DNA of 64,000 bases, taken from the IMG/VR virus record IMGVR_UViG_3300045988_151591, positions 34,841 to 98,840 of that record. One strand, given 5' to 3'. Position 1 is the first letter of the stretch. Each line of letters opens with the position of its first letter. Origin of the DNA: a virus. The position numbers and the translations under genes are program-made. Below, one piece after another: positions 5,109 to 61,331 of this stretch. A model generated the notes under the pieces. That model was given only the letters and a program-made list of their open reading frames with translations. It ran no database searches and was not told where the DNA came from.

Positions 5109-5957
5109 TTATAATGTCAAGTCAATACCGAACTTGTCCTCCAAGAACTTCTTGAAGTCCGGCTTACCGAACAGCCCTGTGCTTACCTTGTTCCAATCTG
5201 CATTGGAGCTGTAAAACACGTTGCTGGTGAACCATTCGTAAACGTTGTCGTACCGCTGGCACGCCTTGCTGTCAGGATGCGTTTCCCTAAATCGTTGCCC
5301 CGCACGGAGATACGCCTTTGCTATCTTGGGATATTTCTGAAACTCGATAATGCGCTTGCGCCTTGATACGAGAGGGCAGCACATGCAGCCGAGACGTTTC
5401 GACACGTCGATTTGCCCCGAATTGTAATAAATGGGTGCGAGTTTCAACTTTCTGTCTATGATGAAGTCGCGCACGTCCTCATCGGTCCATTCCAGAATAG
5501 GATAAATCTGTTCTACGTGATTTTCCTCTTTCTTCGCTCCGTAGTATCGGCACACTGTTGGCTCGTCGTATCTTTCGCCTCTTTTTCTGCTCTCAGCTTT
5601 GCGCACGCCGATAATACTTTTGTTGAGCACCTTATATTCCTTCAGTTTTTCACAACAGAAACGAGTAAAGCGAGATGGAAATCCTTTCTGCGCCACGAGA
5701 TGAAAAAAGGAGGTCTTGGCCCGCAGTATCTCCACTCCCATCTCCCTGACGTGCCCCAACGTGCCTGGCGGGTCGATGGTCGTATTCTTGTATATGGCCC
5801 GATACTTGATGCCGGCCTCTTTCGCCAGTTGAAGGATCACGTCGGAGTCCTTACCGCCCGAGTAGGCTATCTCTATCTCGCTGTCGTATCGCTTCTGCAC
5901 ACTCTGCAGGAGTTTTATCGACTGTTTTACCTTTTTCTGCAGTTGTTCGTTTAACAT
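5109..5957 (-). CDS. PAPS reductase / PP-loop ATP pyrophosphatase family protein (DndC/CysH-like)
   Basis: Canonical PP-loop 'SGGKDS' at residues ~33-38. C-terminal Cys cluster 'CMCCP'. Confidence 0.85.
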   Translation of the reverse strand: MLNEQLQKKVKQSIKLLQSVQKRYDSEIEIAYSGGKDSDVILQLAKEAGIKYRAIYKNTTIDPPGTLGHVREMGVEILRAKTSFFHLVAQKGFPSRFTRFCCEKLKEYKVLNKSIIGVRKAESRKRGERYDEPTVCRYYGAKKEENHVEQIYPILEWTDEDVRDFIIDRKLKLAPIYYNSGQIDVSKRLGCMCCPLVSRRKRIIEFQKYPKIAKAYLRAGQRFRETHPDSKACQRYDNVYEWFTSNVFYSSNADWNKVSTGLFGKPDFKKFLEDKFGIDLTL

Positions 5958-5960
5958 ATT

Positions 5961-5995
5961 TTTTATAGTCTTTTTATAGTGTTTTTATAGCGCAT
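5961..5995. repeat. 3x tandem TTTTTATAG(N)(N)
   Basis: Sequence reads 'ttttttatagtctttttatagtgtttttatagcg'. Lies directly upstream of the PAPS reductase gene on the minus strand. Confidence 0.5.
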
Positions 5996-6086
5996 TTATG
6001 CACTATATATTTGCTGAGGTTCGATTCTTTTGGAGAAATCAGCCGACTCTTTTGATGAAATCAACCGGCCGCCGTTTTTCCCATGT

Positions 6087-6212
6087 GCTAACACTTTTGA
6101 TGCAAAGGGCTAACACATTCGATGCAAAGGGCTAACACTTTCGTTTTAATGTGTCGGCACATTCGCTGTTCAAACGATGCCCATTGTTTATATCAAACGA
6201 TGCCCATCACCT
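6087..6212. promoter_or_regulatory. repeat array: 3x GATGCAAAGGGCTAACAC plus 2x AACGATGCCCATTGTT half-palindromes
   Basis: Direct repeats read in the intergenic region. The second motif recurs at 30971-31061. Confidence 0.55.
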
Positions 6213-6226
6213 TCATAAGGTCATGC

Positions 6227-7033
6227 CTATTCTTCATTATCCGTCTTTTCGGAATCCGTCAATTCGCTTTCTTTCATGTACCCGTGTCTAATCACATCCT
6301 CCTCGTCCTTCTGCTCCATGTACTCGAAGTAGTCCGGCTCAGTATCTTTGCCTACAGCCTGCAGGGATTCCTCTTCGGCTATATCCCGCATATCCTTTGC
6401 CGTAAGACCATACTTGCGGGCCAGACGTAGCTTCTCCTCCTCAGTATAGTTGATGCGGTCGCGTTTCACGATGCTCACGTCCTGCGTGATGGCAATGCGA
6501 CTCATGTCCGGCATCTCGTCCGTAGCGTCCTTCTCCTCGATGAAGTTGCCGTATATGTTGGTCAAGGCCTGCATACCCTTATCCACGGCACGGTCGTTGT
6601 TCTGCTGTTTGCCCGTGCGTATCAACCATTCTGCCGAATTGAGGTACATGGCCTTGTGGCGCGGACTCTCGTCGGTGGTGAAGAAGCGGATGATATGATT
6701 GCACACCGCCACGTCGTTGTTGAGCTCCGTGATGGTGCGATTTTTCACATTACCCTCGTCGTCCACCGTGATGCCCAGAGCCTGAATCATCGCCACAGCC
6801 TCCTTGTTGCCCTGTGCGGCTTGGTTGATGAACAACTCGTAGTCACGTCGGGCAATGTTGCGACAGGTGGTACGAGGGTCGATGTCCTTGTTCTGCACCC
6901 ACCTTTTGTAATATTCCGCACATATCTGCATACGATAGCGCTGCTCCAGGTTCGGGAACATCGTCTCGATGCTGATGCCTTGCGCCAACCATTTGTCGAT
7001 GCGTGCCAATGTGCCTTGTGTTATCTGACTCAT
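6227..7033 (-). CDS. hypothetical protein. Possible DNA-binding or small-terminase candidate, with an acidic C-terminal tail.
   Basis: 268 aa. First gene of the minus-strand operon that ends in TerL. No family motif recognised. Confidence 0.4.
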   Translation of the reverse strand: MSQITQGTLARIDKWLAQGISIETMFPNLEQRYRMQICAEYYKRWVQNKDIDPRTTCRNIARRDYELFINQAAQGNKEAVAMIQALGITVDDEGNVKNRTITELNNDVAVCNHIIRFFTTDESPRHKAMYLNSAEWLIRTGKQQNNDRAVDKGMQALTNIYGNFIEEKDATDEMPDMSRIAITQDVSIVKRDRINYTEEEKLRLARKYGLTAKDMRDIAEEESLQAVGKDTEPDYFEYMEQKDEEDVIRHGYMKESELTDSEKTDNEE

Positions 7034-7231: not shown

Positions 7232-7762
7232 ATGCAAACGATCTTACCCAACATTACCCGATTCATAGCAGCCGCAATAGGTCTGCTGTGGTGTTACATC
7301 GAACCCTCACTCAACTACATCGGTGTATGCTTCTTCGCCCTTCTACTGGATTGCTACACGGCATGGCGGCTCAACCGCCGTATCTACAGCCGGTATCGTG
7401 AGGCTATCAAGAAGAACCCCAAATGCCAGATGGACGGCAAGCTGAAATCCAAGAAGATGACCAAGATGGTGCAGGACTTCTCCGTCCTCATCCTCGCCAT
7501 CTTCCTCGCCACCGCCATCGACACCATCGTACTCGACTACATGAATCCGCTCCATCTCGCCAATTATCTCGCCGCCCTTTACTGCGGAGTCCAGTTTGTC
7601 AGCATCCTTGAGAACGAAAGCACCTGCAACGGAGCAGGGTGGGCGCGAGTGATGCAGAAGATAGTAGCCGACAAGACCGAGCGCCACTTCAATATCAAGT
7701 TGAAGGAACTCATGCGGGATGAGGAAGATATGAGTAAAGAAAAATCCCCCGACCCCGAATAG
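7232..7762 (+). CDS. membrane protein, phage holin-like
   Basis: 176 aa. 3-4 predicted hydrophobic helices. Charged C-terminal tail. Confidence 0.4.
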   Translation: MQTILPNITRFIAAAIGLLWCYIEPSLNYIGVCFFALLLDCYTAWRLNRRIYSRYREAIKKNPKCQMDGKLKSKKMTKMVQDFSVLILAIFLATAIDTIVLDYMNPLHLANYLAALYCGVQFVSILENESTCNGAGWARVMQKIVADKTERHFNIKLKELMRDEEDMSKEKSPDPE

Positions 7763-7807
7763 TAGCATGGGCATCGCCGCCCATAACCCTAATAAAGAGA
7801 AAAGAGA

Positions 7808-8392
7808 ATGGCAACAATAAGCAATATCCTTGAGCATTGGGCTTCCATTTACAAGCCTTTTTCTCACAACCCCGAGAGCAAGCGCCTCGAAGACCAGAGT
7901 TTCTTCCGCATCCGCTACATCGACCTTGAGAACATCTTTTCCCGAAACGCCAACGTAGTTCACTCGCCGTGTATGCTATACAGCGTACTGACCACCGGCG
8001 AACTCGTTGACGCAAAGAAGGCATCTGTCTCTCACCAGGTGTGGTTTCTCGCCAAAGTGAAGGACACGCCGCAGACTCTTGGCCGTTACGACGGCAACAA
8101 GATAGAGCGCACGGCCAACGACCTCACCGACTACTGCAAGGACCTCATAGCCTGGCTTATCGAAGTGAAGCGCACAGGCCGCTGTCCCGTCACAAAGCGC
8201 AGTTTTGCCGACGATGCCATGGTGATGGCGGAGCTGCAAAGCATCGACACCAGCAGCATCTCCTTCGGCATGGTGGGTGACATCTACGCCGGACAATGGC
8301 TCGTGGTGGGCATGGACTGGAAGAGCCTGCAGCCGCTCTACAACTTCGCGTGTGGCAGCAACGGCAAGTATATCGTGCCGGAAGAACCCTAA
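7808..8392 (+). CDS. hypothetical protein (194 aa)
   Basis: ORF upstream of the tape-measure gene. Could be a tail chaperone or tail tube, but nothing in the sequence establishes this. Confidence 0.45.
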   Translation: MATISNILEHWASIYKPFSHNPESKRLEDQSFFRIRYIDLENIFSRNANVVHSPCMLYSVLTTGELVDAKKASVSHQVWFLAKVKDTPQTLGRYDGNKIERTANDLTDYCKDLIAWLIEVKRTGRCPVTKRSFADDAMVMAELQSIDTSSISFGMVGDIYAGQWLVVGMDWKSLQPLYNFACGSNGKYIVPEEP

Positions 8393-13816: not shown

Positions 13817-13867
13817 ATTTACGAATTTTATTTTCTTTATCTTATTTATTAGTTAGTATTTTCTGAT

Positions 13868-13905
13868 GAGACCGCTCCGTTGTGAAACGTGGCGGTCTTT
13901 TTCTT
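13868..13905 (+). terminator. intrinsic terminator
   Basis: 'gagaccgc...gcggtcttttt' hairpin plus T-run, 50 bp after the TMP stop. Confidence 0.6.
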
Positions 13906-13960
13906 TCGTTGTGAGGTATGAACGACCATCAAAAGATACTCTGTACGAAATCCGAATAAT

Positions 13961-14075
13961 CTGGTCGCATTTCGTAAAAATGAATGTGACAGGGTAGGGT
14001 AGTGGTATAACTGACTCATTTATTGGGACTTTATTCGTATTTTTGGTCGCATTTCGGGGTCTTGGTCGCATTTTT
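13961..14075. repeat. iteron-like repeats TGGTCGCATTT (3 copies)
   Basis: Copies at ~13961, ~14043 and ~14061, inside an ~900-bp AT-rich non-coding region upstream of the primase gene. Confidence 0.55.
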
Positions 14076-14710
14076 CATGAATCCTAAGCATACTATATCA
14101 GAATTTTGGGTAATTTTTTTATTCTCCTAAAATCAAAAGCCCCTAACCCCAATTTAGAAGTTAGTAGCATTAACGGCTTTGCCGTAAACATCAGACAATA
14201 AGTTACTTACAAGATTGAGATGGGGCAAAGCATAAGACGGAATTGAGCCAATTTTGCTGTATTTTATATCTTTTAGATAAATATTTTATTTCTTATGCGC
14301 ATATTAGTTTATAAAAATAATAATCATTTTGAGACCAAAATAATATAAAAAGCTAATTATTAAGCAAGTAACAGCAAGAAAAAAGTGGGCAACAGGGTGA
14401 TAATCGTGGGACAATCATGGGACTAAAATGGAGAAAAATATGATGAGTGGACTTTTGCTTTTTGGCTCATTTTTGAAAAATGGGACTTTTTGATACAGAA
14501 ATGAGACCAGAGTCTTCATTTTGGTCTCATTTTATTTTATTCTCCTTCTCGTAACTCAAAAATACCTGTTATTACGTGAAACAACTGAGATGTTTCGATT
14601 AAATTTCTTTTAATATATCTTAAATATTCAGGAAAACATCCCAGGTATTTTGTTGTCTTGATTTTATTTCTTAATTTTGCAACGAAAGTACTAAGTATAA
14701 TAACTAAGAT

Positions 14711-15796
14711 ATGTTTGACGAAGTTTGCTCTATTTATGAGTCTGCCCAAGATGCTTATGGTCGTTTCGTAGACCGCGAGACGGGTGAGTGCATTCAGCAG
14801 ATGACTATCCGCGAGTTCTGTCTTACGGACAGATGGAAGCCGTATGTTCAGCGCCTTCGTGCTATGCGTCAGGAATTTGGCAGCAAGGCAAAGAAGATGC
14901 CCGAGTACATCGATACCAAGAAGCATTTGCCTGGAGCAACTCTTAGCGGCTTGTTCGCCCTCTATGAGGATGACAGTCTGACCCATCCAGGGCAGCGTGT
15001 CATGGTTAGCCGACGAGAGAGCCACCTGAAACAGCACACGGGCTGGCTCGCCATCGACATTGATCTGCAGGACAATCTTCAGATAACTGATTTTGAAAGT
15101 ATATTTAAGCTTGCCCGTTTTCGTCCTGAGATAGGATTAATGATGCGGTCTTGCTCTGGTACTGGTTATTTCGGTCTGGTTCGTCTGGCCTATCCCGAAA
15201 GACACAAAGACCAGTTCAAAGCTCTGCTCAAAGAATATGCCGCTATTGGCATCATGCTCGACAAGGCTTGCAGCAACATCGGACGTGTGCGCTTCGCCTC
15301 ATGGGATGATCCCGAACATATATATATCAATGAAAATGTGGTGCCGTATAAGGGACTGGAAGATATGGCTGTGTTGCCATCGCTAATTCCTGTAACTAAA
15401 GTCGCTACGCATTACGAAAATACGTCGTCAGGTCAGAGGTCGGGTTATACTGGTGATTGGGAGAATGATACACCCGACATCATCTTGCGCAAAGCTCGTG
15501 TTCTTGTATGCAAGGTAGAGCAGAATGCTGTTGACATTATGGAAAACTATGATGACTGGGTTAAATGCGGAATGTCTTTATACAGTATCGATCCGCATGA
15601 AGGCTATGATATGTGGAAGCGAGTTTCTCGTTTCCGTCCCTTTGATGCCAACCACGGACACCGTGAATCAGACTTTGTGGCTCCTTGGAAATCATTCGGA
15701 AAATACGACAGAGTAAGAGCAAATACTTTTTTCATGTTTTGCAAAAGAGCCAAGGTAACACTTTCGAGGGAGGATATGCAGGAAATCTATGGCTAA
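14711..15796 (+). CDS. primase-polymerase (AEP-type) with PriCT-1-like C-terminal domain
   Basis: AEP motif I 'GWLAIDIDLQD'. 'SCSGTGYFGLV' and 'RVRFASWDD' motifs. C-terminal 'DWVKCGMSLYSI' PriCT-like segment. Confidence 0.6.
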   Translation: MFDEVCSIYESAQDAYGRFVDRETGECIQQMTIREFCLTDRWKPYVQRLRAMRQEFGSKAKKMPEYIDTKKHLPGATLSGLFALYEDDSLTHPGQRVMVSRRESHLKQHTGWLAIDIDLQDNLQITDFESIFKLARFRPEIGLMMRSCSGTGYFGLVRLAYPERHKDQFKALLKEYAAIGIMLDKACSNIGRVRFASWDDPEHIYINENVVPYKGLEDMAVLPSLIPVTKVATHYENTSSGQRSGYTGDWENDTPDIILRKARVLVCKVEQNAVDIMENYDDWVKCGMSLYSIDPHEGYDMWKRVSRFRPFDANHGHRESDFVAPWKSFGKYDRVRANTFFMFCKRAKVTLSREDMQEIYG

Positions 15797-15911
15797 AGGG
15801 TCGTAATCACAAAAAACATTTTTTTCACAAGTGTTAAATCGAAAACTCAAAAAATGGCAAAAAAGCCCTGATTTTCGCAAAAAGTGAAGCCTATGCGTAT
15901 TTACTTCATGT

Positions 15912-15945
15912 CTACTGATTGTTTACTGATTGTTTACTGATTGCT
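15912..15945. repeat. 3x tandem TACTGATTGTT
   Basis: 'ctactgattgtttactgattgtttactgattgctc' directly upstream of 15974. Confidence 0.5.
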
Positions 15946-17509: not shown

Positions 17510-18487
17510 ATGGGCAAAAGCAAAAAGCAACAAGAGGCAAAGCGCATAGATGCCATCTATGCGCAGCCTACCATTTATTACATTAACTTCAAAGATGTAC
17601 CTTTGGAGAAATATACCGAGTCGCTTGACCTACTCTTTCGTGATCCTGACTTTAATGAGTTGATGACGAAACGCAATAACCTCGCGAAGGTGGCAAGTAG
17701 GTTGAAGCAAGGTTCTTCAGAGATTCAAAATTTGGTGAAGCAGATACAGAAGCGCGATTTAGAGCTGGCTTATACGATGTATTCCTCCGTTGTGTTGGCG
17801 AATGTTCGTTCTAACGTTACCTTCGACTTTTTCTCCTTTGGTACTCTACTGAGATATTTTGTAGATTATTCTCAGGATGGTATGCAAGAGAAGGTAGATA
17901 CATTGTCACTCAACCTTGATAAGGTAGCGTTTCTTTCCGACATGCTGGAATGCGTCGTGAAGGATGTCAGGTCGAATATGTATGCAGTCTTCGGCAATAC
18001 TACTGAGTTCCATCAGTTCGACGGTGTTATCAAAATGATACAGCAACTTCGTGGCTTTTATCAGTCTGTTATTGGTAAGGATGACAACACTCCTAAAGCA
18101 CAGCTGTATTTTGAATATTCTGACAGTATCGACGATTACCTCAGCAAACGTTTGACTACCTACAGCAAGAAGCTTCGTAAACTGACACCCATGTTGCCAG
18201 TTTATACTGCAGAGCAGATGGTAGAAGCCATTAACCTGTTTTTTTACAATGAAACCCATTTTGATAAGGAATTTATCAAGCATACGGAAAGTGGAGGAAC
18301 GTATATAGATGCTTTATCGCTCGTCAAAGTTTTATCGCCCAGTCAGACAGAAAGGCTCGACAAGGTGATGAAAGAGGCGGGATGTACTGTCACAGCGGAT
18401 AAAGATCCAGCCAACTATTGCTTTAGAGTAACAGATATTATCCTGTTGTACTACCATAGAAGTAAAGGTAAAAAAGTAAAAAGGTAA
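17510..18487 (+). CDS. hypothetical protein (325 aa)
   Basis: ORF with a Lys-rich C-terminus. Confidence 0.5.
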   Translation: MGKSKKQQEAKRIDAIYAQPTIYYINFKDVPLEKYTESLDLLFRDPDFNELMTKRNNLAKVASRLKQGSSEIQNLVKQIQKRDLELAYTMYSSVVLANVRSNVTFDFFSFGTLLRYFVDYSQDGMQEKVDTLSLNLDKVAFLSDMLECVVKDVRSNMYAVFGNTTEFHQFDGVIKMIQQLRGFYQSVIGKDDNTPKAQLYFEYSDSIDDYLSKRLTTYSKKLRKLTPMLPVYTAEQMVEAINLFFYNETHFDKEFIKHTESGGTYIDALSLVKVLSPSQTERLDKVMKEAGCTVTADKDPANYCFRVTDIILLYYHRSKGKKVKR

Positions 18488-18536
18488 AAAAAGACCCTCT
18501 TGCCAATCTGAATGTAAAAAGTAAACATTTTTTAAG

Positions 18537-24113: not shown

Positions 24114-25022
24114 ATGGAACTTCGTCATTTGCGCTCATTTGTATATGTAGCCGAAACTTTATCGTTCAGTATTGCAGCCACGCGCTGTTGTGTCGCTCAG
24201 TCCGCCATCAGTCAACACATCAAGGCTCTTGAGGATGAACTGAGGTGCAAGTTGCTTATCCGCACCTCGCACAGCATTATGCTCACCGAGAGTGGCGAGG
24301 CGCTTTTGCCTCGCGCCAAGGAGATACTGAAGCAGACGGATGACTGCAAGGAGCAAATCAATGCGCTCAACAACTGCCTTGTGGGCGAGCTGAGGATAGG
24401 TGTAGGCTCTTTTATCGCACCTTACATTCGGATGGCGGCACTTATCTTCATGGAGCGATACCCGAATGTGAGAATCAACGCCGAGTTTGCCAAGGCAGCG
24501 AACTTGAACCACCTGTTGAGAAGCCACTCCATCGACCTCGCCTTCACTCTGAACTCTGCCTACAAGAATGAGGGTATCAAGTCAGAACCCTGTATTCCTT
24601 TCCGTATCTATGCGATGATGCGGGACACCCATCCCCTGGCCCGACTGGAAAAGGTGTCATACGAGGATTTGTTAAGGCACAACGTGATTATGCCCGATGT
24701 AGGCGAAAGGGTGTTCAATACCTTCCAGCAATATCTGAGATATGACTTGATGAAACTGAATGTAAAATGTATTGTGAGCGACCCCAACGAAGACCTTGCC
24801 ATCGTGGAAGAAACCCATTGTGTTACTTTCATGCCTAAACTTTATCTGAAGAGTCACCCCACCCTTACCGTCCGTCCCATCGTGGGGCTTGAGCACGACC
24901 TGATGAGCAATGCCCACTGGATGAAGGACGTGCCGATGAAGCGGTCAGCACAACTTTTTCTCGACATTGTGCGCAACGAAGCCATACCTTATATTAAAAC
25001 TCTTGAGGAAGCCATGCGATAA
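24114..25022 (+). CDS. LysR-family transcriptional regulator
   Basis: N-terminal HTH 'LRHLRSFVYVAETLSFSIAATRCCVAQSAISQHIKALEDELRCKLLIRTS'. The length and C-terminal domain fit the LysR family. Confidence 0.85.
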   Translation: MELRHLRSFVYVAETLSFSIAATRCCVAQSAISQHIKALEDELRCKLLIRTSHSIMLTESGEALLPRAKEILKQTDDCKEQINALNNCLVGELRIGVGSFIAPYIRMAALIFMERYPNVRINAEFAKAANLNHLLRSHSIDLAFTLNSAYKNEGIKSEPCIPFRIYAMMRDTHPLARLEKVSYEDLLRHNVIMPDVGERVFNTFQQYLRYDLMKLNVKCIVSDPNEDLAIVEETHCVTFMPKLYLKSHPTLTVRPIVGLEHDLMSNAHWMKDVPMKRSAQLFLDIVRNEAIPYIKTLEEAMR

Positions 25023-27133: not shown

Positions 27134-27628
27134 ATGAAGTACAATCAATTAATCAACCAGGCCCGTGTTGACGGACAGATGACAGACAAAAAACTCAATG
27201 CTGCCTTGGAGCAGTTGTCGTGCGACCTGATGAAGGTGGAGAATGAGAATCCAGAGCTTTACTGGAAGATCATCCGTCACCAGCATGCCGTGCTCTACGA
27301 CCGCCACTACAGCGAGATGTTTGCCCATCATGATGTCGACCGACTTCTCTACAGCAAGTTGGACGATGAGGGTGTGCCTATGGGCAGGGGCGCTCACTGG
27401 ACTAAATCGGAGATTGAGCAAGCCACCAAGGACTTCGACTTCCCAAGCAAGGTGAATTGTTGGGACAAGTATGTAGCCTTCAATGCCATGTATGCTGACC
27501 TCTGCGCCGAGATGAGCGAAGAGGAGATTATCAAAGCCGCATACTTGTTCTACTTCTGTGATGCCGACTGGAAGGACACAGATGTACTCGACTGTACGAA
27601 AGTATGGGAATACATGAGCCATGTTTGA
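27134..27628 (+). CDS. hypothetical protein (164 aa)
   Basis: ORF. Confidence 0.5.
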   Translation: MKYNQLINQARVDGQMTDKKLNAALEQLSCDLMKVENENPELYWKIIRHQHAVLYDRHYSEMFAHHDVDRLLYSKLDDEGVPMGRGAHWTKSEIEQATKDFDFPSKVNCWDKYVAFNAMYADLCAEMSEEEIIKAAYLFYFCDADWKDTDVLDCTKVWEYMSHV

Positions 27629-27894
27629 AAAGTAAAAAGGTAAAAAGAGCCGAATATCATTTTGCTGGCGTCAGCAAAATGGTAGTCTTGCCTTTTCAGG
27701 ATAATATTTCGTTTCAGAAGCCGCTTTGCTCCACGAAGAGTGCAGCATTGCGGCTTCCATTGTTTCCGGCTGCGTCAACCCGGTGCGCAGTCTGTCATAC
27801 AAAGTAGCTGGGATATTTTTGTCCCGCACGACGGATAGCGTTTTCGTATCTTTGCCCTACATTTATTAACAACAGAACAAGAAAACGATAAACT

Positions 27895-28449: not shown

Positions 28450-28469
28450 TTTTGATAACTTTCCCATCC

Positions 28470-28620
28470 ATTTTTGGATTTTTCTGGATAAATCTGGTCC
28501 AGCTTTTGGATTTTTCTGGATTAAAAATAGTCCAATTTTGGCGTTTTTTGGATAAAATCGTACAATTTTAGATTTTTTCTGTACTAAAATCGTCCAATTT
28601 TGGCATTTTTGGGATAAAAA
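28470..28620. repeat. 5x tandem ~30-bp repeat TTTTGGATTTTTCTGGATAAAATCGTCCAA
   Basis: Degenerate direct repeats read between the endolysin gene and 28638. Confidence 0.6.
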
Positions 28621-29672: not shown

Positions 29673-29771
29673 GCTTTTAAAGGTAAAAAAGTAAAAAGGT
29701 AAAAAAGTAAAAAGAGCCTTCTTGCTGATTTCTAAGACGAAAAAAGTAATAATCAAACCAAACAAGAGAAT

Positions 29772-30912
29772 ATGAAATACGGACTACCTTACAAAGGAAG
29801 CAAAAACAAGTTGGCAGAGCGCATTGTGCGCCTCCTGCCCAAGCGCACGCACCTCGTAGATTTGTTCTGTGGTGGATGCGCCGTGAGCCATGCTGCCCTG
29901 CTTATGGGCAAGTATGAGCACATACATATCAACGACATCAACTGGATGTGTCCTACGCTATTCATTGATGCCCTTAACGGTAAGTACAATGACGAAAACC
30001 GATGGATTAGCCGTGAAGACTTCTTTCGTCTGAAGGACACTGACCCTTATGTGGCTGTAGTGTGGTCGTTTGGCAACAATCTGCGCGACTATCTTTATTC
30101 TAAAGAGATTGAGCCATTGAAGAAAGCCATACACTATGCCATATTCTTCAGCGACTATTCGCTTGGCAAAGAACTCGGTCACGACCTCTCGTTCATCGAC
30201 CCCATACAAGACCTTCAAAAGCGATACCTTGCCGTGAAGCATTACTTCAATAAGTTGGGTCACTTCCAGCAGCAATCGTTTGAGGGGGGGGCAGAATCAG
30301 CGGATGCAGCAGGAATCCTTCAGTCGCACTACCCGACTTGCCTCAATACAAATGGGGGGGTACTCAGAGGATGCAGTCAGCGGAAGCAAACGAAAGGCTC
30401 AATACATTTCGGAATATCATCCCTTGGAAAGGCTGTCAAATCCAGTCTTTCAAAAAAAAAAAAATACAAGCGACCCAGCGAGCTACAGCACAACGAAGGA
30501 CGAAACATCGTTGCATCGCTTGCAATATCGAGAACGGCAGCACAGTCTGCCCAGATATTCGGGGGGGCAGTTTCTACCTATTACGTCCTCTGTGCTTGAC
30601 TATGAAGAAGTCACGATACCCGAAGACAGCGTGATTTATTGCGACATTCCATACGAGGGTACAGACGGATATTTAGAAAAAGGCAAAGGAGGTTTCGACT
30701 ATGAACGATTCTATCAGTGGTGTGAGCGGCAAACGCAACCCGTATTCATATCCTCTTATCAAATACCCGAAGACCGCTTCGACTGCATAGAAGAGTTTAC
30801 CCATCGTTGCACCTTGGCTCAGAAAGACAACAACCTCGTGACGGAGCGCATCTTCGTTCCCAAGCATCAAGCCGAAAGAGGCAACCGCACCGTGCAGCTC
30901 ACGCTGTTCTGA
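29772..30912 (+). pseudogene. Dam-type N6-adenine methyltransferase, split across two frames by a ~300-bp homopolymer-rich insert
   Basis: N-terminal 'YKGSKNKLAERIVRLLP...LVDLFCGGCAV' is Dam motifs X/I. 'CDIPYEGT' is a DPPY-like motif IV in the 30280-30912 frame. Between them are G8, G8, A13 and G7 tracts, with no stop codons in two frames. Confidence 0.6.
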
Positions 30913-30970
30913 CAAGTATGTCCCACTCAGGAAAAAGCAAAGCAGTAACTTTGCCATAAGCATACGAAGA

Positions 30971-31061
30971 AACAAACGATGCCCATTGTTATATGCAAAC
31001 AATGCCCATTGTTTAACCACAACAATGCCCATTGTTGCATATAAACGATACCCATTGTTTT
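30971..31061. promoter_or_regulatory. array of 4 palindromic sites AACAATG-CC-CATTGTT
   Basis: Read directly at 30971, 30997, 31021 and 31044, upstream of the HU-like gene. The same motif occurs at 6172-6212. Confidence 0.55.
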
Positions 31062-31104: not shown

Positions 31105-31587
31105 ATGGCATTTTCATTAAAATTGAGCAAGTCGAAAGCCTATAACCCCTCCACCAAGGAGCAGGGCTTTCGCACCACCGTTAAGTCTAACGGCAAAGCA
31201 GACATGGACTCTTTGGTAGCGTCTGCAAGTAAGAACACCACCATGCACAAGGCCGAGCTCCGCATGGCTTTTGAGCTGATGCTTGACGCTATCGCCGAAG
31301 CGCTCACATCGGGAAAGAACGTCGAGCTCAAGGGTATCGGCAACATCGGTTTCTCATGCTCCGGCGCTTGGACCAAGACCGCCGAGGAGCAGACCAAGGT
31401 GGAGCACAAGATCGGTGTAGCCTTCTATCCAAGCAATGAGGTACACGCTGCCGTAGCCACAGCCAAGACATCGTGGACCAAGGATGGCGAGGGCGACGAG
31501 CCTACCACTCCCGGCACAGGCGACTCCGGCACCACGGGTGGCGGCGACCAGAAACCTGGTGGCAACCCTCCCGAGATTGAGTCGTAA
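31105..31587 (+). CDS. HU-like DNA-binding protein (Bacteroidetes HU-HIG type)
   Basis: 'AELRMAFELMLDAIAEALTSGKNVELKGIGNIGFSCSG' is an HU-fold-like segment. Gly/Thr-rich C-terminal tail ending '...GGGDQKPGGNPPEIES'. Confidence 0.5.
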   Translation: MAFSLKLSKSKAYNPSTKEQGFRTTVKSNGKADMDSLVASASKNTTMHKAELRMAFELMLDAIAEALTSGKNVELKGIGNIGFSCSGAWTKTAEEQTKVEHKIGVAFYPSNEVHAAVATAKTSWTKDGEGDEPTTPGTGDSGTTGGGDQKPGGNPPEIES

Positions 31588-32548: not shown

Positions 32549-32907
32549 TGTGCGACTACGATATGTAGGCGGACGCAACACGACACCCCGACAACAACAT
32601 AATATAGGCCATAATGCAAAAACGTGAAACATATTGTTAGATTAACTGCGGCTCGCACGGCTTCATTCCCGAAGACTACCAACACTCTCGAACTTTCCAA
32701 TTCTATGAAGTGGACGGGAAAGGGAAGGGAGAACCGACGGGACCGCAGTTTTTTCGCTCAGACGCGGTGCGCCGAATGAGGCAACCGCACCGTGCAGCTC
32801 TCGCAGTTCTGACTCATGTCCGTACCACTAAGACAATTCTTAGTACATTTGTAGTCGAAAAAAGCAACAACAACATACATCAACCCCTAAAAACAGGATA
32901 ACAGAAT

Positions 32908-34773: not shown

Positions 34774-35883
34774 ATGATACTTTCCACCAATCAAGAACTT
34801 CGGCTTATCCTGCCCAGCAATGCCGTGGACGATATAGCCAACCTGCAGGGCGTGCTCGACAACAGCGAGAAGGACTTCCTGCAGGACAAGTTGGGCAAGC
34901 CGCTCTACACACGGCTCTGCGAATACTACACCACCCTGGGCGGCGACGGCTTCTATCAGCAGAAGACCGACGGATCCTATGCCAAGAAACCATGGAGCGT
35001 CCTCCTCAACCTCGCCCAGCGCATGGTGGTCAACGACGCCATGGCGCGATACGCCTACCAGCAAATCCTTTCGGTCAACGGCGCAGGCGTCAACATCGCC
35101 TCCTCTACCGATTACGACCCCGCCACAGAGATACTCCTCGACAAGGGAGTGGCAGGATATAGGATGGAGGCCATGGTGTCGCTCAACAACCTCTTGAAAC
35201 TCCTTGAAAACTGGGCAGTCAGCATCAACACGCCAGCCGAAACAGCCGCCCCGAAAGACGGCAGCGCAAGTACAGAAGTACCAAAGGGCGAAAGTACAGA
35301 AGTACCTGACGACGGAAAATCCGACATACCACAGGACGAAAATGCCGAAGCCCATACAGCTATCGAGGAGATAGTGCTGTTGTGGCAGGAGAGCAAGTAC
35401 TACTATCTGCACCACGACCTCCTCTTTCCTACGTGCAGCGTCCTTGAGCAGTATCTTAGCGTGCACGACAACCGCGACAAGTTTATCCGTCTGTTGCCCG
35501 ACATCCGCTACGTACAGGACGAATACATAGCCGACGTGTTCGGCGACGAGCTCATCGACCGTCTTCAGCATGCCGACGACCGCGACAAACTCCTCCGTAA
35601 GGTGCGCCGACTGATGACCGCCTACCTCGTGGAGCGAACCACCGTCATCGCCTTTGACAAGGCTACCCGACTGTTGGCGCACAACGAGTCCATCTCGCTC
35701 CGCGATTCCGTCTATCGCCTCCTCAATGCCGAGAAGCAGGCTCAGGAAGCCGCCGATAGCAATGCCTCCTCCTCCACTTCCACCACGACCGCCGCTCCCT
35801 CATCATCCGCTGCAGACAAATCCGGCGGCTACGAGAATAACCAGGAGGGCGGCAAGATATTCGTCACACCACTCATGTTCTAA
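34774..35883 (+). CDS. hypothetical structural protein (369 aa)
   Basis: ORF with an acidic central region and a Ser/Thr-rich C-terminus. Confidence 0.5.
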   Translation: MILSTNQELRLILPSNAVDDIANLQGVLDNSEKDFLQDKLGKPLYTRLCEYYTTLGGDGFYQQKTDGSYAKKPWSVLLNLAQRMVVNDAMARYAYQQILSVNGAGVNIASSTDYDPATEILLDKGVAGYRMEAMVSLNNLLKLLENWAVSINTPAETAAPKDGSASTEVPKGESTEVPDDGKSDIPQDENAEAHTAIEEIVLLWQESKYYYLHHDLLFPTCSVLEQYLSVHDNRDKFIRLLPDIRYVQDEYIADVFGDELIDRLQHADDRDKLLRKVRRLMTAYLVERTTVIAFDKATRLLAHNESISLRDSVYRLLNAEKQAQEAADSNASSSTSTTTAAPSSSAADKSGGYENNQEGGKIFVTPLMF

Positions 35884-40535: not shown

Positions 40536-41750
40536 ATGGATAGAAAAATATTAATCACAGGCACAGGTATCGTTTCCAGTCTTGGCAACGATACCTTTTC
40601 CGTCGCACAGAAGTTGGCAAATGGAGAGTGCGGTCTGCACCACGATCCCGCACGCAGCGAGAAAGGCTATCAGTCCGACCTGTGCGGAAAGATAAAGGAC
40701 CCGAACCCTTGGAAGTTATCTGAACTCACAAGGGCTCAACGGCAATGTTTTTCCGAACCGACCCTATATTCCTTATCTGCCGTCAATGAGGCTCTGATGG
40801 AAGCCAATATTCTTCCCGAGTTCTTGCAGTCTCACAATGTGTCTGTCATCGTCAGCAATGACTCTACGGCAGGAGAAAGCTATCAGGCAATGACCACTGC
40901 CATTACACAGCGCGACACCCGACGTTTAGGGGCGGCTGCAGTGTTTCGCACACTCAATTCCACCGTCAGCATGAACCTCGCCTCTATCTACGGACTGAAA
41001 GGACTTTCGCTTACCGTCAGCGGGGCTTGTGCCGGAGGAGGTCATGCCATTACTCTCGCCAAGATGCTTCTTGATACGCGCCAAACCGAAATGGTGATTG
41101 TCGTTGGCGCACAGGAGACTGGTCCCTTCTCCATGCTGTCGTTTGATGCCATGGGCGTATTCTCGCCAGACAAGGTGCAGCCTTTCGGCAAAGGCCGCAA
41201 TGGTCTGGCTCCTTCGGGTGGTGCTGCCTGTGTCATTCTTGAGCCTTCCGACAGCTTGCGTTTTGAGGATTATGAAGTCTCGCCCGTGGCAGAACTTTCC
41301 GGCTGCGGCTTCTCCACCAACGGCACCAACATCTGTACCCCGGATGCTTATCAGGAAGAAGTGGCAATGATTAAGGCCATAGAATCGGCAGGACTCGATG
41401 CAGGAATGATAGATGTACTCCTTGCCCATGCCACAGGTACAGAGCTGGGCGATGCTGCAGAGGCAGAAGCCATCGGAAAGGTATTCCCCGAGAGCCCTTA
41501 TATCGTAGCCACCAAGGGCATGACGGGGCACGAGTGCTGGATGGCTGGTGTATCGCAGGCCGTTCAAGCATCCATGATGCTCAACACAGACACTGTCTTC
41601 GGTGCGGCTACCACAGCCGAGAATGCTTTTCCCAAACTCAATCTCGTCATGCAGTCACGCGAGTACTCAGCACACCATATCCTCTGCAATGCCTTTGGCT
41701 TCGGAGGCACCAACTCATCATTCATCATCTCTAAATATCAACCATCATGA
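40536..41750 (+). CDS. beta-ketoacyl-ACP synthase (FabF/FabB-like KS)
   Basis: 'ITGTGIVSSLGN' N-terminus. Active-site Cys in 'TVSGACAGGGHAITLA'. His motifs 'LAHATGTELGD' and 'TKGMTGHECWMAG'. C-terminal 'NAFGFGGTNSSFII'. Confidence 0.9.
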   Translation: MDRKILITGTGIVSSLGNDTFSVAQKLANGECGLHHDPARSEKGYQSDLCGKIKDPNPWKLSELTRAQRQCFSEPTLYSLSAVNEALMEANILPEFLQSHNVSVIVSNDSTAGESYQAMTTAITQRDTRRLGAAAVFRTLNSTVSMNLASIYGLKGLSLTVSGACAGGGHAITLAKMLLDTRQTEMVIVVGAQETGPFSMLSFDAMGVFSPDKVQPFGKGRNGLAPSGGAACVILEPSDSLRFEDYEVSPVAELSGCGFSTNGTNICTPDAYQEEVAMIKAIESAGLDAGMIDVLLAHATGTELGDAAEAEAIGKVFPESPYIVATKGMTGHECWMAGVSQAVQASMMLNTDTVFGAATTAENAFPKLNLVMQSREYSAHHILCNAFGFGGTNSSFIISKYQPS

Positions 41751-41995
41751 ACAAAGAAGATATACGTCAGCGGGTGTTCAATATCGTTGAAGGCCTGCGC
41801 ACACCTTGGGCATCGACAGCAGAAGTGACCGACAGCGCTAACCTGCGTGATGATCTTGCTCTTGAGTCTATTGACTTTCTCGACCTCGTTCTTCAGACCG
41901 AAACCATGTTCCATATCAAGATTTCGCCAGAAGAGGCAAAAGACTTACAGCTTGTGTCTGATGTGACAGCTATCGTAGAGAAGAAAATGTCTTAG
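41747..41995 (+). CDS. acyl carrier protein
   Basis: 82 aa. 'DDLALESIDFLDLVLQTETMF' matches the ACP DLGxDSLDxVELVMxxEE helix-II motif, with a conserved Ser. The ATG overlaps the KS stop codon. Confidence 0.8.
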   Translation: MNKEDIRQRVFNIVEGLRTPWASTAEVTDSANLRDDLALESIDFLDLVLQTETMFHIKISPEEAKDLQLVSDVTAIVEKKMS

Positions 41996-52723: not shown

Positions 52724-52772
52724 GTCGTAGTACTTTCATAGTACTCTCGTAGTACTTTCGTAGTACTTGCTC
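52724..52772. promoter_or_regulatory. 4x tandem (T)CGTAGTACTT(T) repeats containing palindrome AGTACT
   Basis: Read in the divergent intergenic region between 52607 (minus) and 52829 (plus). Confidence 0.5.
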
Positions 52773-53297: not shown

Positions 53298-53335
53298 CCC
53301 ACGGCAGGCACACGGCTTGCCGTGGGATTTTTATT
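53298..53335. terminator. bidirectional intrinsic terminator
   Basis: 'cccacggca...tgccgtggg' 9-bp stem plus 'atttttatt'. Lies between convergent genes. Confidence 0.55.
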
Positions 53336-53624
53336 CTTCGGGCAGGAGCATCACACCGACACGAACCTTTGCACCACAATGAGGACAGAAGGCGGTGGTG
53401 TTGATAGTAGGCTGTGCATCGCTCGAATCGCCTATTGGATAGAACAAATCAGTGATGTCGCAATCCAGTTTCTCGCAAAGGTCTTCCAAACGTTTTATTG
53501 TAGGGTTGCCTTTGATGTAATTCTGAATGATGTTCTGCGTCTTTAGGTCGAACTTCTGACAGAAAGACGTAATGGTGTAACCGCGCTCTTTTATGGCGCG
53601 ACGAATGTCTATTTTCGTTCTCAT
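53331..53624 (-). CDS. XRE-family HTH regulator with C-terminal zinc ribbon (repressor candidate)
   Basis: 'YTITSFCQKFDLKTQNIIQNYIKGN' HTH. 'CPHCGAKV' zinc ribbon. Confidence 0.65.
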   Translation of the reverse strand: MRTKIDIRRAIKERGYTITSFCQKFDLKTQNIIQNYIKGNPTIKRLEDLCEKLDCDITDLFYPIGDSSDAQPTINTTAFCPHCGAKVRVGVMLLPEE

Positions 53625-54325: not shown

Positions 54326-54538
54326 TTGCAAAGTCAAACAAATAAAACATATAAAATAATGAAGTACACAGAATTTCACCGAAGAATCAAGGCCAAGGGC
54401 TGGAAGTTCGACCACGCCGAAGGCTCGCACTACTTTTACACCAAGGGCGGAAAGCTCTCGCCCCCTGTCCCCTTTCATGGGGCAAAGGAGGTGCCCGAGC
54501 CGTTACGGCGGAGCATAGCGCGAGCGATGGGAATTTAA
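54326..54538 (+). CDS. hicA: HicA-family mRNA interferase toxin
   Basis: 'KYTEFHRRIKAKGWKFDHAEGSHYFYTKGGK...VPFHGAKEV' matches the HicA/YcfA signature. The likely true start is the internal ATG 'MKYTEF' (~54359). A TAccTTTG promoter motif lies upstream. Confidence 0.75.
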   Translation: MQSQTNKTYKIMKYTEFHRRIKAKGWKFDHAEGSHYFYTKGGKLSPPVPFHGAKEVPEPLRRSIARAMGI

Positions 54539-54606
54539 CAGAAGAAAGAGGAAAGGGGCGCGCCCCTTTCCTCCATCATAATAAACGATATAATATATAT
54601 AAGGAT

Positions 54607-55014
54607 ATGGCAAACGAAATTATAATGCTTATTTCTGCAAGTGCCGACAGTTTCGGCGCATGCTCTGAGAATTGCCCCGGTATTTGGGCGGCTGGCGACA
54701 CCGTGGAAGCATGCAAGGCCGACACCGTGCAAGCTATCGAGTTAATAGAAAAGAACATGCCACGCGAGGACTGGCCCGAACCTCTGAAGGCTGGCGAATA
54801 TACAATTATATGGCGGTATGATACCGAAAGCTTTTTGTATTATTACGGTAGTTTTATATCTCTTGCAGGTATGGAGCGTATCACGGGGATAAATCAAAAA
54901 CAACTATGGGCCTATATGCACGGACGCAAGAAACCGCGACAGGCACAGAAAGAGAAAATTATAAACGCTTTACACCGTTTCGCCCGTGAGTTGGCGGCGG
55001 CCGTTATACTTTAG
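54607..55014 (+). CDS. hicB: HicB-family antitoxin
   Basis: 'FGACSENCPGIWAAGDTVEACKADTVQAIELIEK' is a HicB/UPF0150 fold motif. The C-terminal segment is DNA-binding-like. Confidence 0.7.
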   Translation: MANEIIMLISASADSFGACSENCPGIWAAGDTVEACKADTVQAIELIEKNMPREDWPEPLKAGEYTIIWRYDTESFLYYYGSFISLAGMERITGINQKQLWAYMHGRKKPRQAQKEKIINALHRFARELAAAVIL

Positions 55015-55098: not shown

Positions 55099-55446
55099 TT
55101 ACCTCTTTGCTCCTCCCCCCTGCTCCAGACGCTCGACGATGGCGCGGAGCTGCTGCACGGTGTCGGCTGTGTAGGTCTCACCGCCGACACGCACGACACC
55201 AACCAGGGCACCACCACCACCGCCTGCGCGCTGCGCCCTGGCTTGCTTCACCTCCTCCACAACTGCAGGAGGGGCGAGAAGCTGCCACGGCTCCACATCC
55301 AAGGCGGCGGCGATGCGCTCCAAGGTTGGGAACGATGGCCGCGAGATCGTGGCGGATACACTGGGACGCGATACGCCCAGAAGGTCGGCTAAATCCTGTT
55401 GGGTCATGCCCTTTTGTGTTAGTATGTCTTTAATGTATGATTTCAT
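55099..55446 (-). CDS. XRE-family HTH transcriptional regulator
   Basis: 'MKSYIKDILTQKGMTQQDLADLLGVSRPSVSA' HTH. Pro/Gly-rich C-terminus. Confidence 0.65.
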   Translation of the reverse strand: MKSYIKDILTQKGMTQQDLADLLGVSRPSVSATISRPSFPTLERIAAALDVEPWQLLAPPAVVEEVKQARAQRAGGGGGALVGVVRVGGETYTADTVQQLRAIVERLEQGGGAKR

Positions 55447-55612
55447 CTTTTTTAATTTGGGTACAAAGATATACATATTTATATAATGTAAAGAAGTCTT
55501 TACGTTAAATAGTGTTTAAAGTAAAAAAATAGTTACTTAAATATTTGTTTGGTAAATATATATTTACTATCTTTGCACTCGAAAACAAAGTAACAACAAA
55601 AATACAAAGATT

Positions 55613-61254: not shown

Positions 61255-61331
61255 TTTTAAAGGTAAAAAAGTAAAAAGGTAAAAAGAGCCTTCTTGCTGA
61301 TTTCAAAACAAAAAGTAAAAAACGAAAGATT

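Follow-up and report, generated by a model that had tools for sequence, protein, structure and literature searches.

Why does one short palindrome recur at two distant intergenic sites of a phage genome, and is it read by a protein, by folding, or not at all? The question arises from a 64,000-nt stretch of the IMG/VR virus record IMGVR_UViG_3300045988_151591 (positions 34,841 to 98,840; hereafter the window), in which the motif AACRATG-CC-CATTGTT, here called A-type, lies in a 270-bp spacer (site 1, 5958–6226) and the leader of a gene for an HU-like protein (site 2). Gene content and promoter signals place the window in the genome of a tailed phage with a Bacteroidota host: the window encodes a tape-measure protein, a head protease, a portal, a GH108 lysin, a holin and several DNA methyltransferases, has no Shine–Dalgarno sequences and carries TAnnTTTG −7 boxes before most genes. 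The intergenic boxes lie mostly directly upstream of gene starts. Such ~100-kb Bacteroidales phages are abundant in human-gut metagenomes, and little is known of the control of their gene expression.

On comparison with related phages, the motif can be assigned with high confidence to a modular, exchangeable family of 22–23-bp dyad-repeat arrays in gut phages. With equal confidence, the family appears to mark promoter-proximal and intercistronic slots and the borders of gene cassettes. As judged from the collected loci, the arrays hold 2–6 direct copies of a 16–18-bp dyad with a period of 22–23 bp, in ~100-kb human-gut Bacteroidales phages.

A shared dyad motif at two intergenic sites

The initial annotation had described a palindromic motif shared by two distant intergenic sites, and this proved to be real. 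With up to three mismatches allowed, the window contains nine strand-matches, against 0.77 ± 0.89 expected from 100 dinucleotide shuffles, none of which reached nine. The four copies claimed upstream of the HU-like gene were recovered at 30975–30990, 30998–31013, 31021–31036 and 31044–31059, with an exact 23-bp period. They differ from AACAATGCCCATTGTT by 1, 0, 0 and 2 mismatches, in that order, so that 3 of the 64 core positions deviate, and their linkers are mutually unrelated. The first unit begins 21 nt downstream of a Bacteroidetes −7 promoter box. Site 1, for which two copies had been counted, has a motif content of 1.5 (6173–6211): the first unit is full, with one mismatch (core 6173–6188), and the second (core 6196–6211) keeps only the left arm and the centre (AACGATGCCCATCACC). 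A third, B-like unit (TAAGGTCATGCCTATTCTTCA, 6216–6238) overlaps the stop codon of the minus-strand open reading frame (ORF) 6227–7033.

Every array copy lies on the plus strand and in intergenic DNA; a similar density of the motif in coding sequence, which would have spoken against a functional element, was not seen. ATGCCCAT occurs six times in the window, five times within the two arrays and once on the minus strand at 7767–7774, between the genes 7232–7762 and 7808–8392. The dyad is laid out as 7+2+7 bp, in 2–4 copies about two helical turns apart. It had been given as a 16-bp palindrome; the dyad is present, and its symmetry reaches 18 bp (AAACRATG-CC-CATTGTTT). The three tandem repeats reported in addition for site 1 hold for GCTAACAC (starting at 6087, 6109 and 6131) and not for GATGCAAAGGGCTAACAC, of which there are only two full copies (6099–6116 and 6121–6138).

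Related phages carry other palindromes in the same slots

Relatives were collected by an exact-pattern scan and by scans with the neighbouring proteins. This yielded hundreds of loci (given below by L numbers) on IMG/VR contigs of ~50–106 kb and human-gut metagenome contigs of up to ~114 kb. The gene behind site 2 belongs to the HU-HIG family, and all 13 of its loci retain the order promoter, array, ATG. At least six unrelated palindromes were found in this position, namely AAACRATGCCCATTGTTT, AAACTATGCCCATWGTTT, AAGTTTCGCGCGAAAC, AAACTATACCTATAGTTT, ATAGGAATAGGTATTCCTAT and AGGATATACTTATCCT. Leaders of the window type (L061–L068, L072/L073) share the −7 box, AGCATACGAA, 2–4 dyads at 22–23 bp, GGTATATGC and the ATG; L069–L071 keep the layout of box, array and ATG with a different leader sequence. 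The HU-HIG cassette is found in different genomic neighbourhoods in different lineages.

For site 1, 80 orthologous loci were gathered with the ORF 6227–7033 as an anchor. Roughly a third of them carry arrays, of many types, with up to 5–6 types side by side and hybrid units among them. The b-type array of site 1 reaches up to 4.6 copies in relatives, and the c-type unit GTGTCGGCAC forms threefold arrays there, both at site 1 and before an HU-like gene. Further slots lie between the portal gene and the next gene, at a site ~8.4 kb further on, and between the genes for a primase and a dNMP kinase. The orientation of the arrays relative to the flanking genes varies between slots, and their presence and copy number vary between near-identical genomes.

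Reuse of one palindrome within a genome was searched for with the pattern TTCGCGCGAA-N12-TTCGCGCGAA. Threefold TTCGCGCGAA arrays stand at three loci each in contigs 171719, 175279 and 3300029828_000005 (HU leader, portal and next gene, primase and dNMP kinase) and at two loci in two more genomes. As far as these sequences go, a genome therefore tends to fill several intergenic slots, far apart, with the palindrome type that is its own. At two of the TTCGCGCGAA loci two copies of AAGTGATGCGCATCACTT then follow in the same order and orientation, and within one genome two TTCGCGCGAA loci agree in all of 55 bp, linkers included. A-type arrays occupy two loci in the window and two in L249; the c-type is present at both sites of contig 134987. 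The earlier idea of a two-site regulon of one element thus survives in the reuse of a genome's own palindrome at 2–3 loci. It is too narrow in that site 1 is a mosaic of about five types and is missing from contig 155282 (L078), in which the neighbouring ORF is 98% identical.

Searches of INPHARED and PLSDB by blastn with both sites and their 3-kb flanks gave no matches, and the only hits obtained were remote ones in the portal. Nothing relevant to the motif sequence itself was found in the literature. The two-unit pattern was detected in only one of 185,579 species-representative genomes, the Prevotellaceae metagenome-assembled genome Gx481_bin33; the A-type is therefore essentially a phage feature. 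This genome contains two chromosomal arrays of the same 16-mer with a 23-bp period and uniform linkers, one of four units between the genes for GAPDH and a nitroreductase (L157, 405–535) and one of six units after a pectinesterase gene (L159, 7370–7503). Both have a common left end, TTTTTGTAGCTAG, and L157 is enclosed by a perfect 11-bp inverted repeat (TTTTTTGTAGC/GCTACAAAAAA). One of the two lies between convergent housekeeping genes and terminator-like hairpins.

The regulators of the window do not follow the array type

The initial annotation had read the motif as multi-copy sites for one dimeric DNA-binding protein. The 7+2+7 dyads, the constrained 16-mer and the reuse within genomes agree with this, and the mechanism is plausible in form; every binder that had been named failed, so that the candidate list is refuted. 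The underlying gene assignments are correct (HU-HIG/HU at 31105–31587, XRE-type helix-turn-helix (HTH) proteins at 53331, 55099 and 61030, LysR at 24114–25022). HU-HIG is 80–99% identical before six different palindromes. LysR and XRE 61030 (84–100% identity) are conserved core genes irrespective of the array type, and more than 20 contigs without the A-type 16-mer have exactly the HTH variant that XRE 53331 shows in the window.

XRE 55099 has operators of its own, unrelated to the motif. Its gene (55099–55476, minus strand) adjoins a divergent promoter region with 16-bp 7+2+7 palindromes (window 55099–55612), namely GTAAAGA-NN-TCTTTAC at ~55488–55503 and GTAAATATATATTTAC, with a spacing of 33 bp. 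Across 14 relatives (loci L274–L296) the half-site shifts with the four residues that open the recognition helix, which read SRPS, TRPS, TQQS, TQSN, SQAS, K/RQAT or TRPT: SRPS goes with GTAAAGA, TRPS with GTAAACA, TQQS with ACAAATA, K/RQAT with ATAGATA and TRPT with AACGTT. Since its helix co-varies with a different palindrome, XRE 55099 would read a different site. The correspondence amounts to an immunity-type repressor/operator code. It offers a clean positive control for operator/repressor co-variation in this phage family, and is directly usable.

Extra CGCG or G-type sites near regulator genes were absent from all 26 loci inspected. The ORF 6227–7033 was considered as a binder or specificity factor and rejected, as its protein is 72–99% identical whatever the arrays; a role as small terminase subunit was likewise discarded (no Pfam, PHROG or PDB match). 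The idea that the arrays are methyltransferase targets had been prompted by methyltransferase genes beside them, and was dropped because HU cassettes of other lineages have no neighbouring methyltransferase.

Some properties of these regulators stand apart from the array question. LysR is a full-length core regulator, unusual for a phage, and was found in more than 118 IMG/VR contigs at 76–99% identity (L160–L239). XRE 53331 (53331–53624, 97 aa) is a member of a modular protein family in which at least six N-terminal HTH domains alternate, joined by a linker of varying length to a conserved, zinc-ribbon-like C-terminal CPHCG tail (L302–L342). A HicA toxin/HicB-like pair (54326–55014) adjoins the XRE switch region.

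Sequence constraint within the units

Among 99 distinct units, the information content is 1.4–2 bits per position in the 16-mer, dropping to 0.6 at R, and ~0.1 bit in the 7-nt linker; because the units were gathered by similarity, the figures for the core are too high. In some types the palindrome is perfect even at its centre (ATGCGCAT, TTCGCGCGAA). Together, core constraint and perfect palindromes would favour a sequence-specific reader of double-stranded DNA.

Comparison with known repeat systems

The arrays are like the OL/OR operators of lambdoid phages and 434 in their 14–18-bp dyads, present in 3–4 copies with centres 20–24 bp apart, in forming more than one cluster per genome, and in a layout that stays constant while the sequence differs between related phages. 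The four 16-mers of site 2, about two turns apart at 23 bp, conform to this arrangement, and the A-type core fits ACAA-N6-TTGT. Unlike these operators, the arrays have no adjoining repressor gene, and residues that co-vary with the site were found in none of the five candidate proteins. They also appear to lie downstream of a −7 box instead of straddling divergent promoters, show up to 5–6 unrelated types adjacent to one another, and are gained and lost between near-identical genomes.

The BrickBuilt elements of Porphyromonas gingivalis are 23-nt tandem repeats, always intergenic, with promoter activity and flanking terminators; they reach 22.8 repeat copies and have IS5-like terminal inverted repeats on leader and tail, and in strain W83 repeats of 22, 23 and 41 nt were noted (PMC4596501). 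The arrays share with them a Bacteroidales host, a direct repeat of ~23 nt with dyad symmetry, predicted stem-loops, an intergenic and promoter-associated position at several loci per genome, often by terminators, and a variable copy number; the Prevotellaceae array L157 also shares the terminal inverted repeats. They differ in their unit, which joins a conserved 16-mer to a free 7-nt linker and exists in many unrelated sequences, in their lower copy number (2–6), and in occurring mainly in phage genomes at a fixed gene-leader position. The phage arrays have no long leader or tail, none that ends in IS5-like repeats, and no significant terminal inverted repeats.

The promoter early stem-loop (PeSL) modules of T4-type phages, reportedly described as mobile regulatory cassettes by Arbiol, Comeau and Krisch in 2010, are a further parallel: they are repeated promoter-plus-stem-loop modules at accessory-gene borders and match the break-points of indels and shuffling. 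In contrast to the arrays, they are single promoters with terminator hairpins, without 22–23-bp periodicity or genome-specific types. Repetitive extragenic palindromes (REPs), their clusters (bacterial interspersed mosaic elements, BIMEs) and the RNase III R sites of phage T7 are also extragenic or intercistronic palindromes, which are transcribed and modulate mRNA stability or processing; REPs are bound by proteins as well (IHF, gyrase). REPs of 35–40 bp alternate in orientation within BIMEs, elements associated with a RAYT transposase, whereas all units within an array are direct repeats, and T7 R sites are single structured hairpins. Neither has tandem direct 22–23-bp units or swaps types.

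Plasmid iterons are similar in being direct repeats of ~22 bp, sometimes at two loci (origin and control), and specific to an incompatibility group. The arrays differ from them in that they are unlinked to a rep gene, dispensable in close relatives and palindromic in each unit; the iteron-like period and AT-rich 11-mers of site 1 come without an adjacent rep gene, and the region is absent from L078. As for parS/sopC-like centromeres, the families ParA, ParB and TubZ were not found within the window. Type III antitoxins (ToxI) and RNA anti-CRISPRs have units of ~28–45 nt, which follow a promoter and precede a terminator and a toxin gene, or else resemble a CRISPR repeat; the units here measure 22–23 nt, and the downstream gene, HU-HIG, is not an endoribonuclease.

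What the arrays may do

Tentatively, and with somewhat less than even confidence, we favour operator-like arrays for a genome-specific dimeric DNA-binding protein that gates transcription just past the promoter. Each dyad would bind a dimer of a sequence-specific HTH-type protein outside the five candidates of the window, whose gene may lie in the remaining ~36 kb or else belong to another element or to the host. Spacing by two helical turns would set neighbouring dimers on the same face of the DNA and allow cooperative binding. Judged from the position of the −7 box, the site 2 array would span ~+13 to ~+100; bound from ~+13, an array could block promoter escape or elongation, both into HU-HIG and into a transcript from the −7 box at 6006 in site 1. 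Being repeated and exchangeable, the arrays may in addition be hot spots of recombination at the margins of accessory cassettes (PAPS reductase; HU-HIG and SPFH). Differences in orientation between slots are as expected for dyads in double-stranded DNA, and the same 7+2+7 design in the operators of XRE 55099 supports, by analogy, an operator architecture.

Several observations weigh against such operators. Co-variation with the array type was seen for none of the five candidates (HU-HIG, LysR and three XRE proteins), no further DNA-binding domain was detected in the proteins of the window, and no array copy adjoining any HTH gene was found. The at least 12–15 array types, up to 5–6 of them adjacent at site 1, would need many regulators. 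Site 1 is dispensable, since a 98%-identical relative does without it, and in this near-complete contig (155282, 100.8 kb) exact A-type units are confined to a single locus. In two independent types of HU-leader array, linkers at symmetric positions are mutually complementary (P = 0.004 and 0.003), and among non-Watson–Crick positions on the ATGCC strand G.T outnumbers A.C by 18 to 5, although these counts are not independent and are inflated by shared ancestry. The GATACTT types retain an asymmetric centre, with arms that change complementarily. Finally, the chromosomal copy L157 resembles a MITE (miniature inverted-repeat transposable element) and, from its ends, looks mobile.

Linker complementarity and the one-strand G.U bias fit a nucleic-acid structure rather than a simple operator. 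The arrays would be transcribed in the 5′ leader of HU-HIG, in a short RNA started at the 6006 box or between cistrons, and would fold into stacked hairpins or one long imperfect hairpin. This structure would decide the transcript's fate, whether by attenuation, by processing of the RNase III type or by shielding from decay. A sequence-specific partner would not be needed, so any palindrome would serve and types could swap freely. The failure to find a co-varying protein agrees with this, as do the position of arrays between −7 box and ATG or between cistrons and the U-rich tracts after several of them. The HU leader has a predicted fold of −37.1 kcal/mol (z = −3.5) and the CGCG-type leader of L063 reaches z = −4.0; in site 2 the first of the linkers ATATGCA, TAACCAC and GCATATA is complementary to the third; the non-palindromic units U1 and U4 of L065 are reverse complements of each other; and the arms of the ATGCNCAT and GATACTT superfamilies vary complementarily around conserved centres. 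We nevertheless consider structured RNA, a strong rival, less likely than the operator reading. Within a type there is no compensatory drift: arms and unpairable centre are conserved across phages and host while the linkers diverge, and hybrid units incapable of forming a hairpin persist in many lineages. Linker complementarity is absent from 7 of 9 other arrays, and whole-array dyad symmetry, tried as a general rule, holds in HU-leader arrays only. Closing inverted repeats are no general evidence for covarying stems, since flank inverted repeats are no better than shuffles in 9 of 11 arrays (the exceptions are L157, 11 bp, P < 0.0005, and L069, 7 bp, P = 0.03). The site 1 fold is unremarkable (z = −0.65 on the plus and −1.9 on the minus strand), slot-dependent orientation makes a loop-specific reader unlikely, an Rfam search returned no family at threshold, and the G.U excess is subject to the shared ancestry already mentioned; tRNAs were not found either. 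A second strong rival, somewhat less likely again, is a selfish or neutral minisatellite of the BrickBuilt, MITE or REP kind. It would arise by slippage and then be carried, by recombination or transposition, into intergenic DNA that tolerates it, in Bacteroidales chromosomes and phages alike, with effects on genes as a by-product and recombination hot spots for cassette exchange as the main consequence. A published precedent exists in BrickBuilt (PMC4596501). Presence and copy number differ between near-identical genomes, about a third of the 80 site-1 loci have arrays, of many types, the types cluster and form hybrid or nested units, and the identity of two loci over 55 bp, linkers included, suggests copy-paste. 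The Prevotellaceae copies, with their shared left end and one 11-bp terminal inverted repeat, lie after housekeeping genes (GAPDH; pectinesterase). Function is argued for by the array's constant leader position at 13 of 13 HU-HIG loci in differing contexts; moreover, strong purifying selection acts on the 16-mer and not on the linkers, phage copies have neither significant terminal inverted repeats nor target-site duplications, and a single genome among the 185,579 contains the two-unit pattern.

The remaining explanations are less probable still. It is quite improbable, though conceivable, that the arrays belong to a hypervariable cis/trans recognition system with a genome-encoded specificity factor, in which clusters of several types are decoys that titrate the regulators of competing heteroimmune phages. 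The factor would be a diversifying DNA-binding protein or a non-coding RNA transcribed from the site-1 cluster under the promoter at 6006; the whole could be an operator sponge in phage–phage conflict, and the Prevotellaceae arrays a host counter-measure of the same kind. Very improbable is autoregulation by HU-HIG itself through recognition of extruded cruciforms or bent DNA irrespective of sequence. Proteins of the HU family bind preferentially to junctions or kinked DNA, the gene is kept downstream of arrays that vary in sequence yet are always dyad-symmetric, and HU-leader arrays are symmetric as a whole; but the same arrays occur at slots without an HU gene, L072 and L073 retain the array though their HU-HIG is truncated to 37 aa, and the exact-sequence constraint on the 16-mer would be left unexplained. 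Least probable of all is a role in replication or partition, with the arrays as origin iterons or as a dispersed centromere like those of P1 and N15. The period of 22–23 bp is typical of iterons, N15 sopC consists of dispersed palindromes, site 1 adjoins an AT-rich stretch with three 11-mers, and the cumulative GC skew has its minimum near 6–8 kb. That turn, however, coincides with the switch in gene orientation at 7033/7232, the array sequence varies among relatives that share replication genes, and no Rep, ParA, ParB or TubZ family was detected in the window. Site 1 as a replication origin was rejected because contig 155282 lacks it, AT-rich part included.

Whatever their mode of action, the arrays are a conspicuous, computationally mappable cis-element that marks regulatory slots and exchange break-points (HU-HIG, SPFH, PAPS reductase). 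If a specific binder exists, as in the operator reading that we tentatively prefer, the types would correspond to specificity groups, much like those of immunity or incompatibility. If the arrays act as RNA or DNA structure, the BrickBuilt/REP idea would extend from bacterial chromosomes to phages.

Organisation of the two sites

The entire spacer of site 1 is composed of short periodic repeats (Table 1) and lies between the stop codon of the 268-aa ORF and a PAPS-reductase-like gene, both on the minus strand. Site 1 is a mosaic of about five array types, and the GCTAACAC repeat is part of the same phenomenon. The −7 box at 6006–6013 is the only promoter-like box at the site. It is kept in close relatives with site-1 arrays (L004, L049, L053, L079, L109), more distant relatives have a version with one mismatch, and it may drive a non-coding or antisense transcript. 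A terminator scan of the window found no intrinsic terminator at site 1; a hairpin GAGGTTCG...CGAACCTC followed by U7 is present in some relatives only. On the minus strand the b-type unit reads TTAGCCCTTTGCATC and agrees with the IS5-like terminal inverted repeat of BrickBuilt, GAGCCCTTTGCA, at 11 of 12 bases, which may be coincidence; it is also similar to the −7 promoter consensus. This resemblance concerns the site-1 arrays of the window (6087–6152), L079, L102 and L109.

Table 1. Elements of site 1 and site 2 and the genes beside them (window coordinates).
Feature	Position	Strand	Remarks
TTTTTATAG, three copies, 11-bp period	5960–5990	+	directly upstream, on the gene's strand, of the PAPS-reductase-like gene 5109–5957 (−)
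Perfect −7 box TATATTTG(C)	6006–6013	+	aims into the site 1 arrays; no plus-strand ORF downstream
a-type array, CGAYTCTTTTGRWGAAATCARC, two copies, 22-bp period	6022–6065	+	
b-type array, GCTAACAC + TTTYGATGCAAAGG, 22-bp period, 2.6 copies	6087–6152	+	
Single c-type unit GTGTCGGCAC	6151–6160	+	
23-bp-period part of site 1	6170–6238	+	A-type unit, hybrid of A-left and B-right, B-like remnant
Conserved 268-aa ORF	6227–7033	−	stop codon forms the right edge of site 1
~50-bp direct repeat, left copy	30871–30925	+	flanks the cassette of promoter, array, HU-HIG and SPFH
Bacteroidetes-type −7 promoter box TAACTTTG(C)	30946–30953	+	21 nt before the first array unit
Site 2 array, four 16-bp dyads AACRATG-CC-CATTGTT	30975–31059	+	23-bp period
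HU-HIG family gene	31105–31587	+	array in its 5′ leader; PF18291, PF14848, PF00216
~50-bp direct repeat, right copy	32771–32823	+	followed by the portal promoter box TACATTTG at 32844

The ~50-bp direct repeat around the site 2 cassette is a duplicated 3′ end of the methyltransferase gene. In the window this D12-class adenine methyltransferase consists of two overlapping ORFs (29772–30599 and 30280–30912), in relative L061 of a single ORF of 376 aa; a frameshift or pseudogene is likely, to judge from the reading frames. In L074/L075 the portal promoter TACATTTGTAGTCGAAAAAAGCAA (box at 32844) reappears before a threefold GTGTCGGCAC array and a different HU-like gene.

Other repeats in the window

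An A-rich element with an 8-bp period (AAAGGTAAAAAAGTAAAAAGGTAAAAAGAGCC) was found at 18464–18500, 27628–27660, 29679–29720 and 61259–61295, each time at or just after a stop codon. A 32-bp unit (TCCAATTTTGGATTTTTCTGGATAAAAATAG) is repeated 4.9 times at 28467–28620, before gene 28638. Other intergenic sets are TGTTTACTGAT in three copies (15909–15943) and TCGTAGTACTT in four (52725–52768), and the palindrome CTATAATATAG occurs at three intergenic sites (59495, 59802 and 60113). A non-coding, AT-rich stretch of 0.9 kb (13817–14710; GC ~40%) with three copies of TGGTCGCATTT lies upstream of a BT4734-like/PriCT_2 primase-type gene (14711–15796) and is more plausible as an origin region than site 1. 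Among the structural genes, a small acyl-carrier-protein-like ORF (PP-binding) was noted at 41747–41995.

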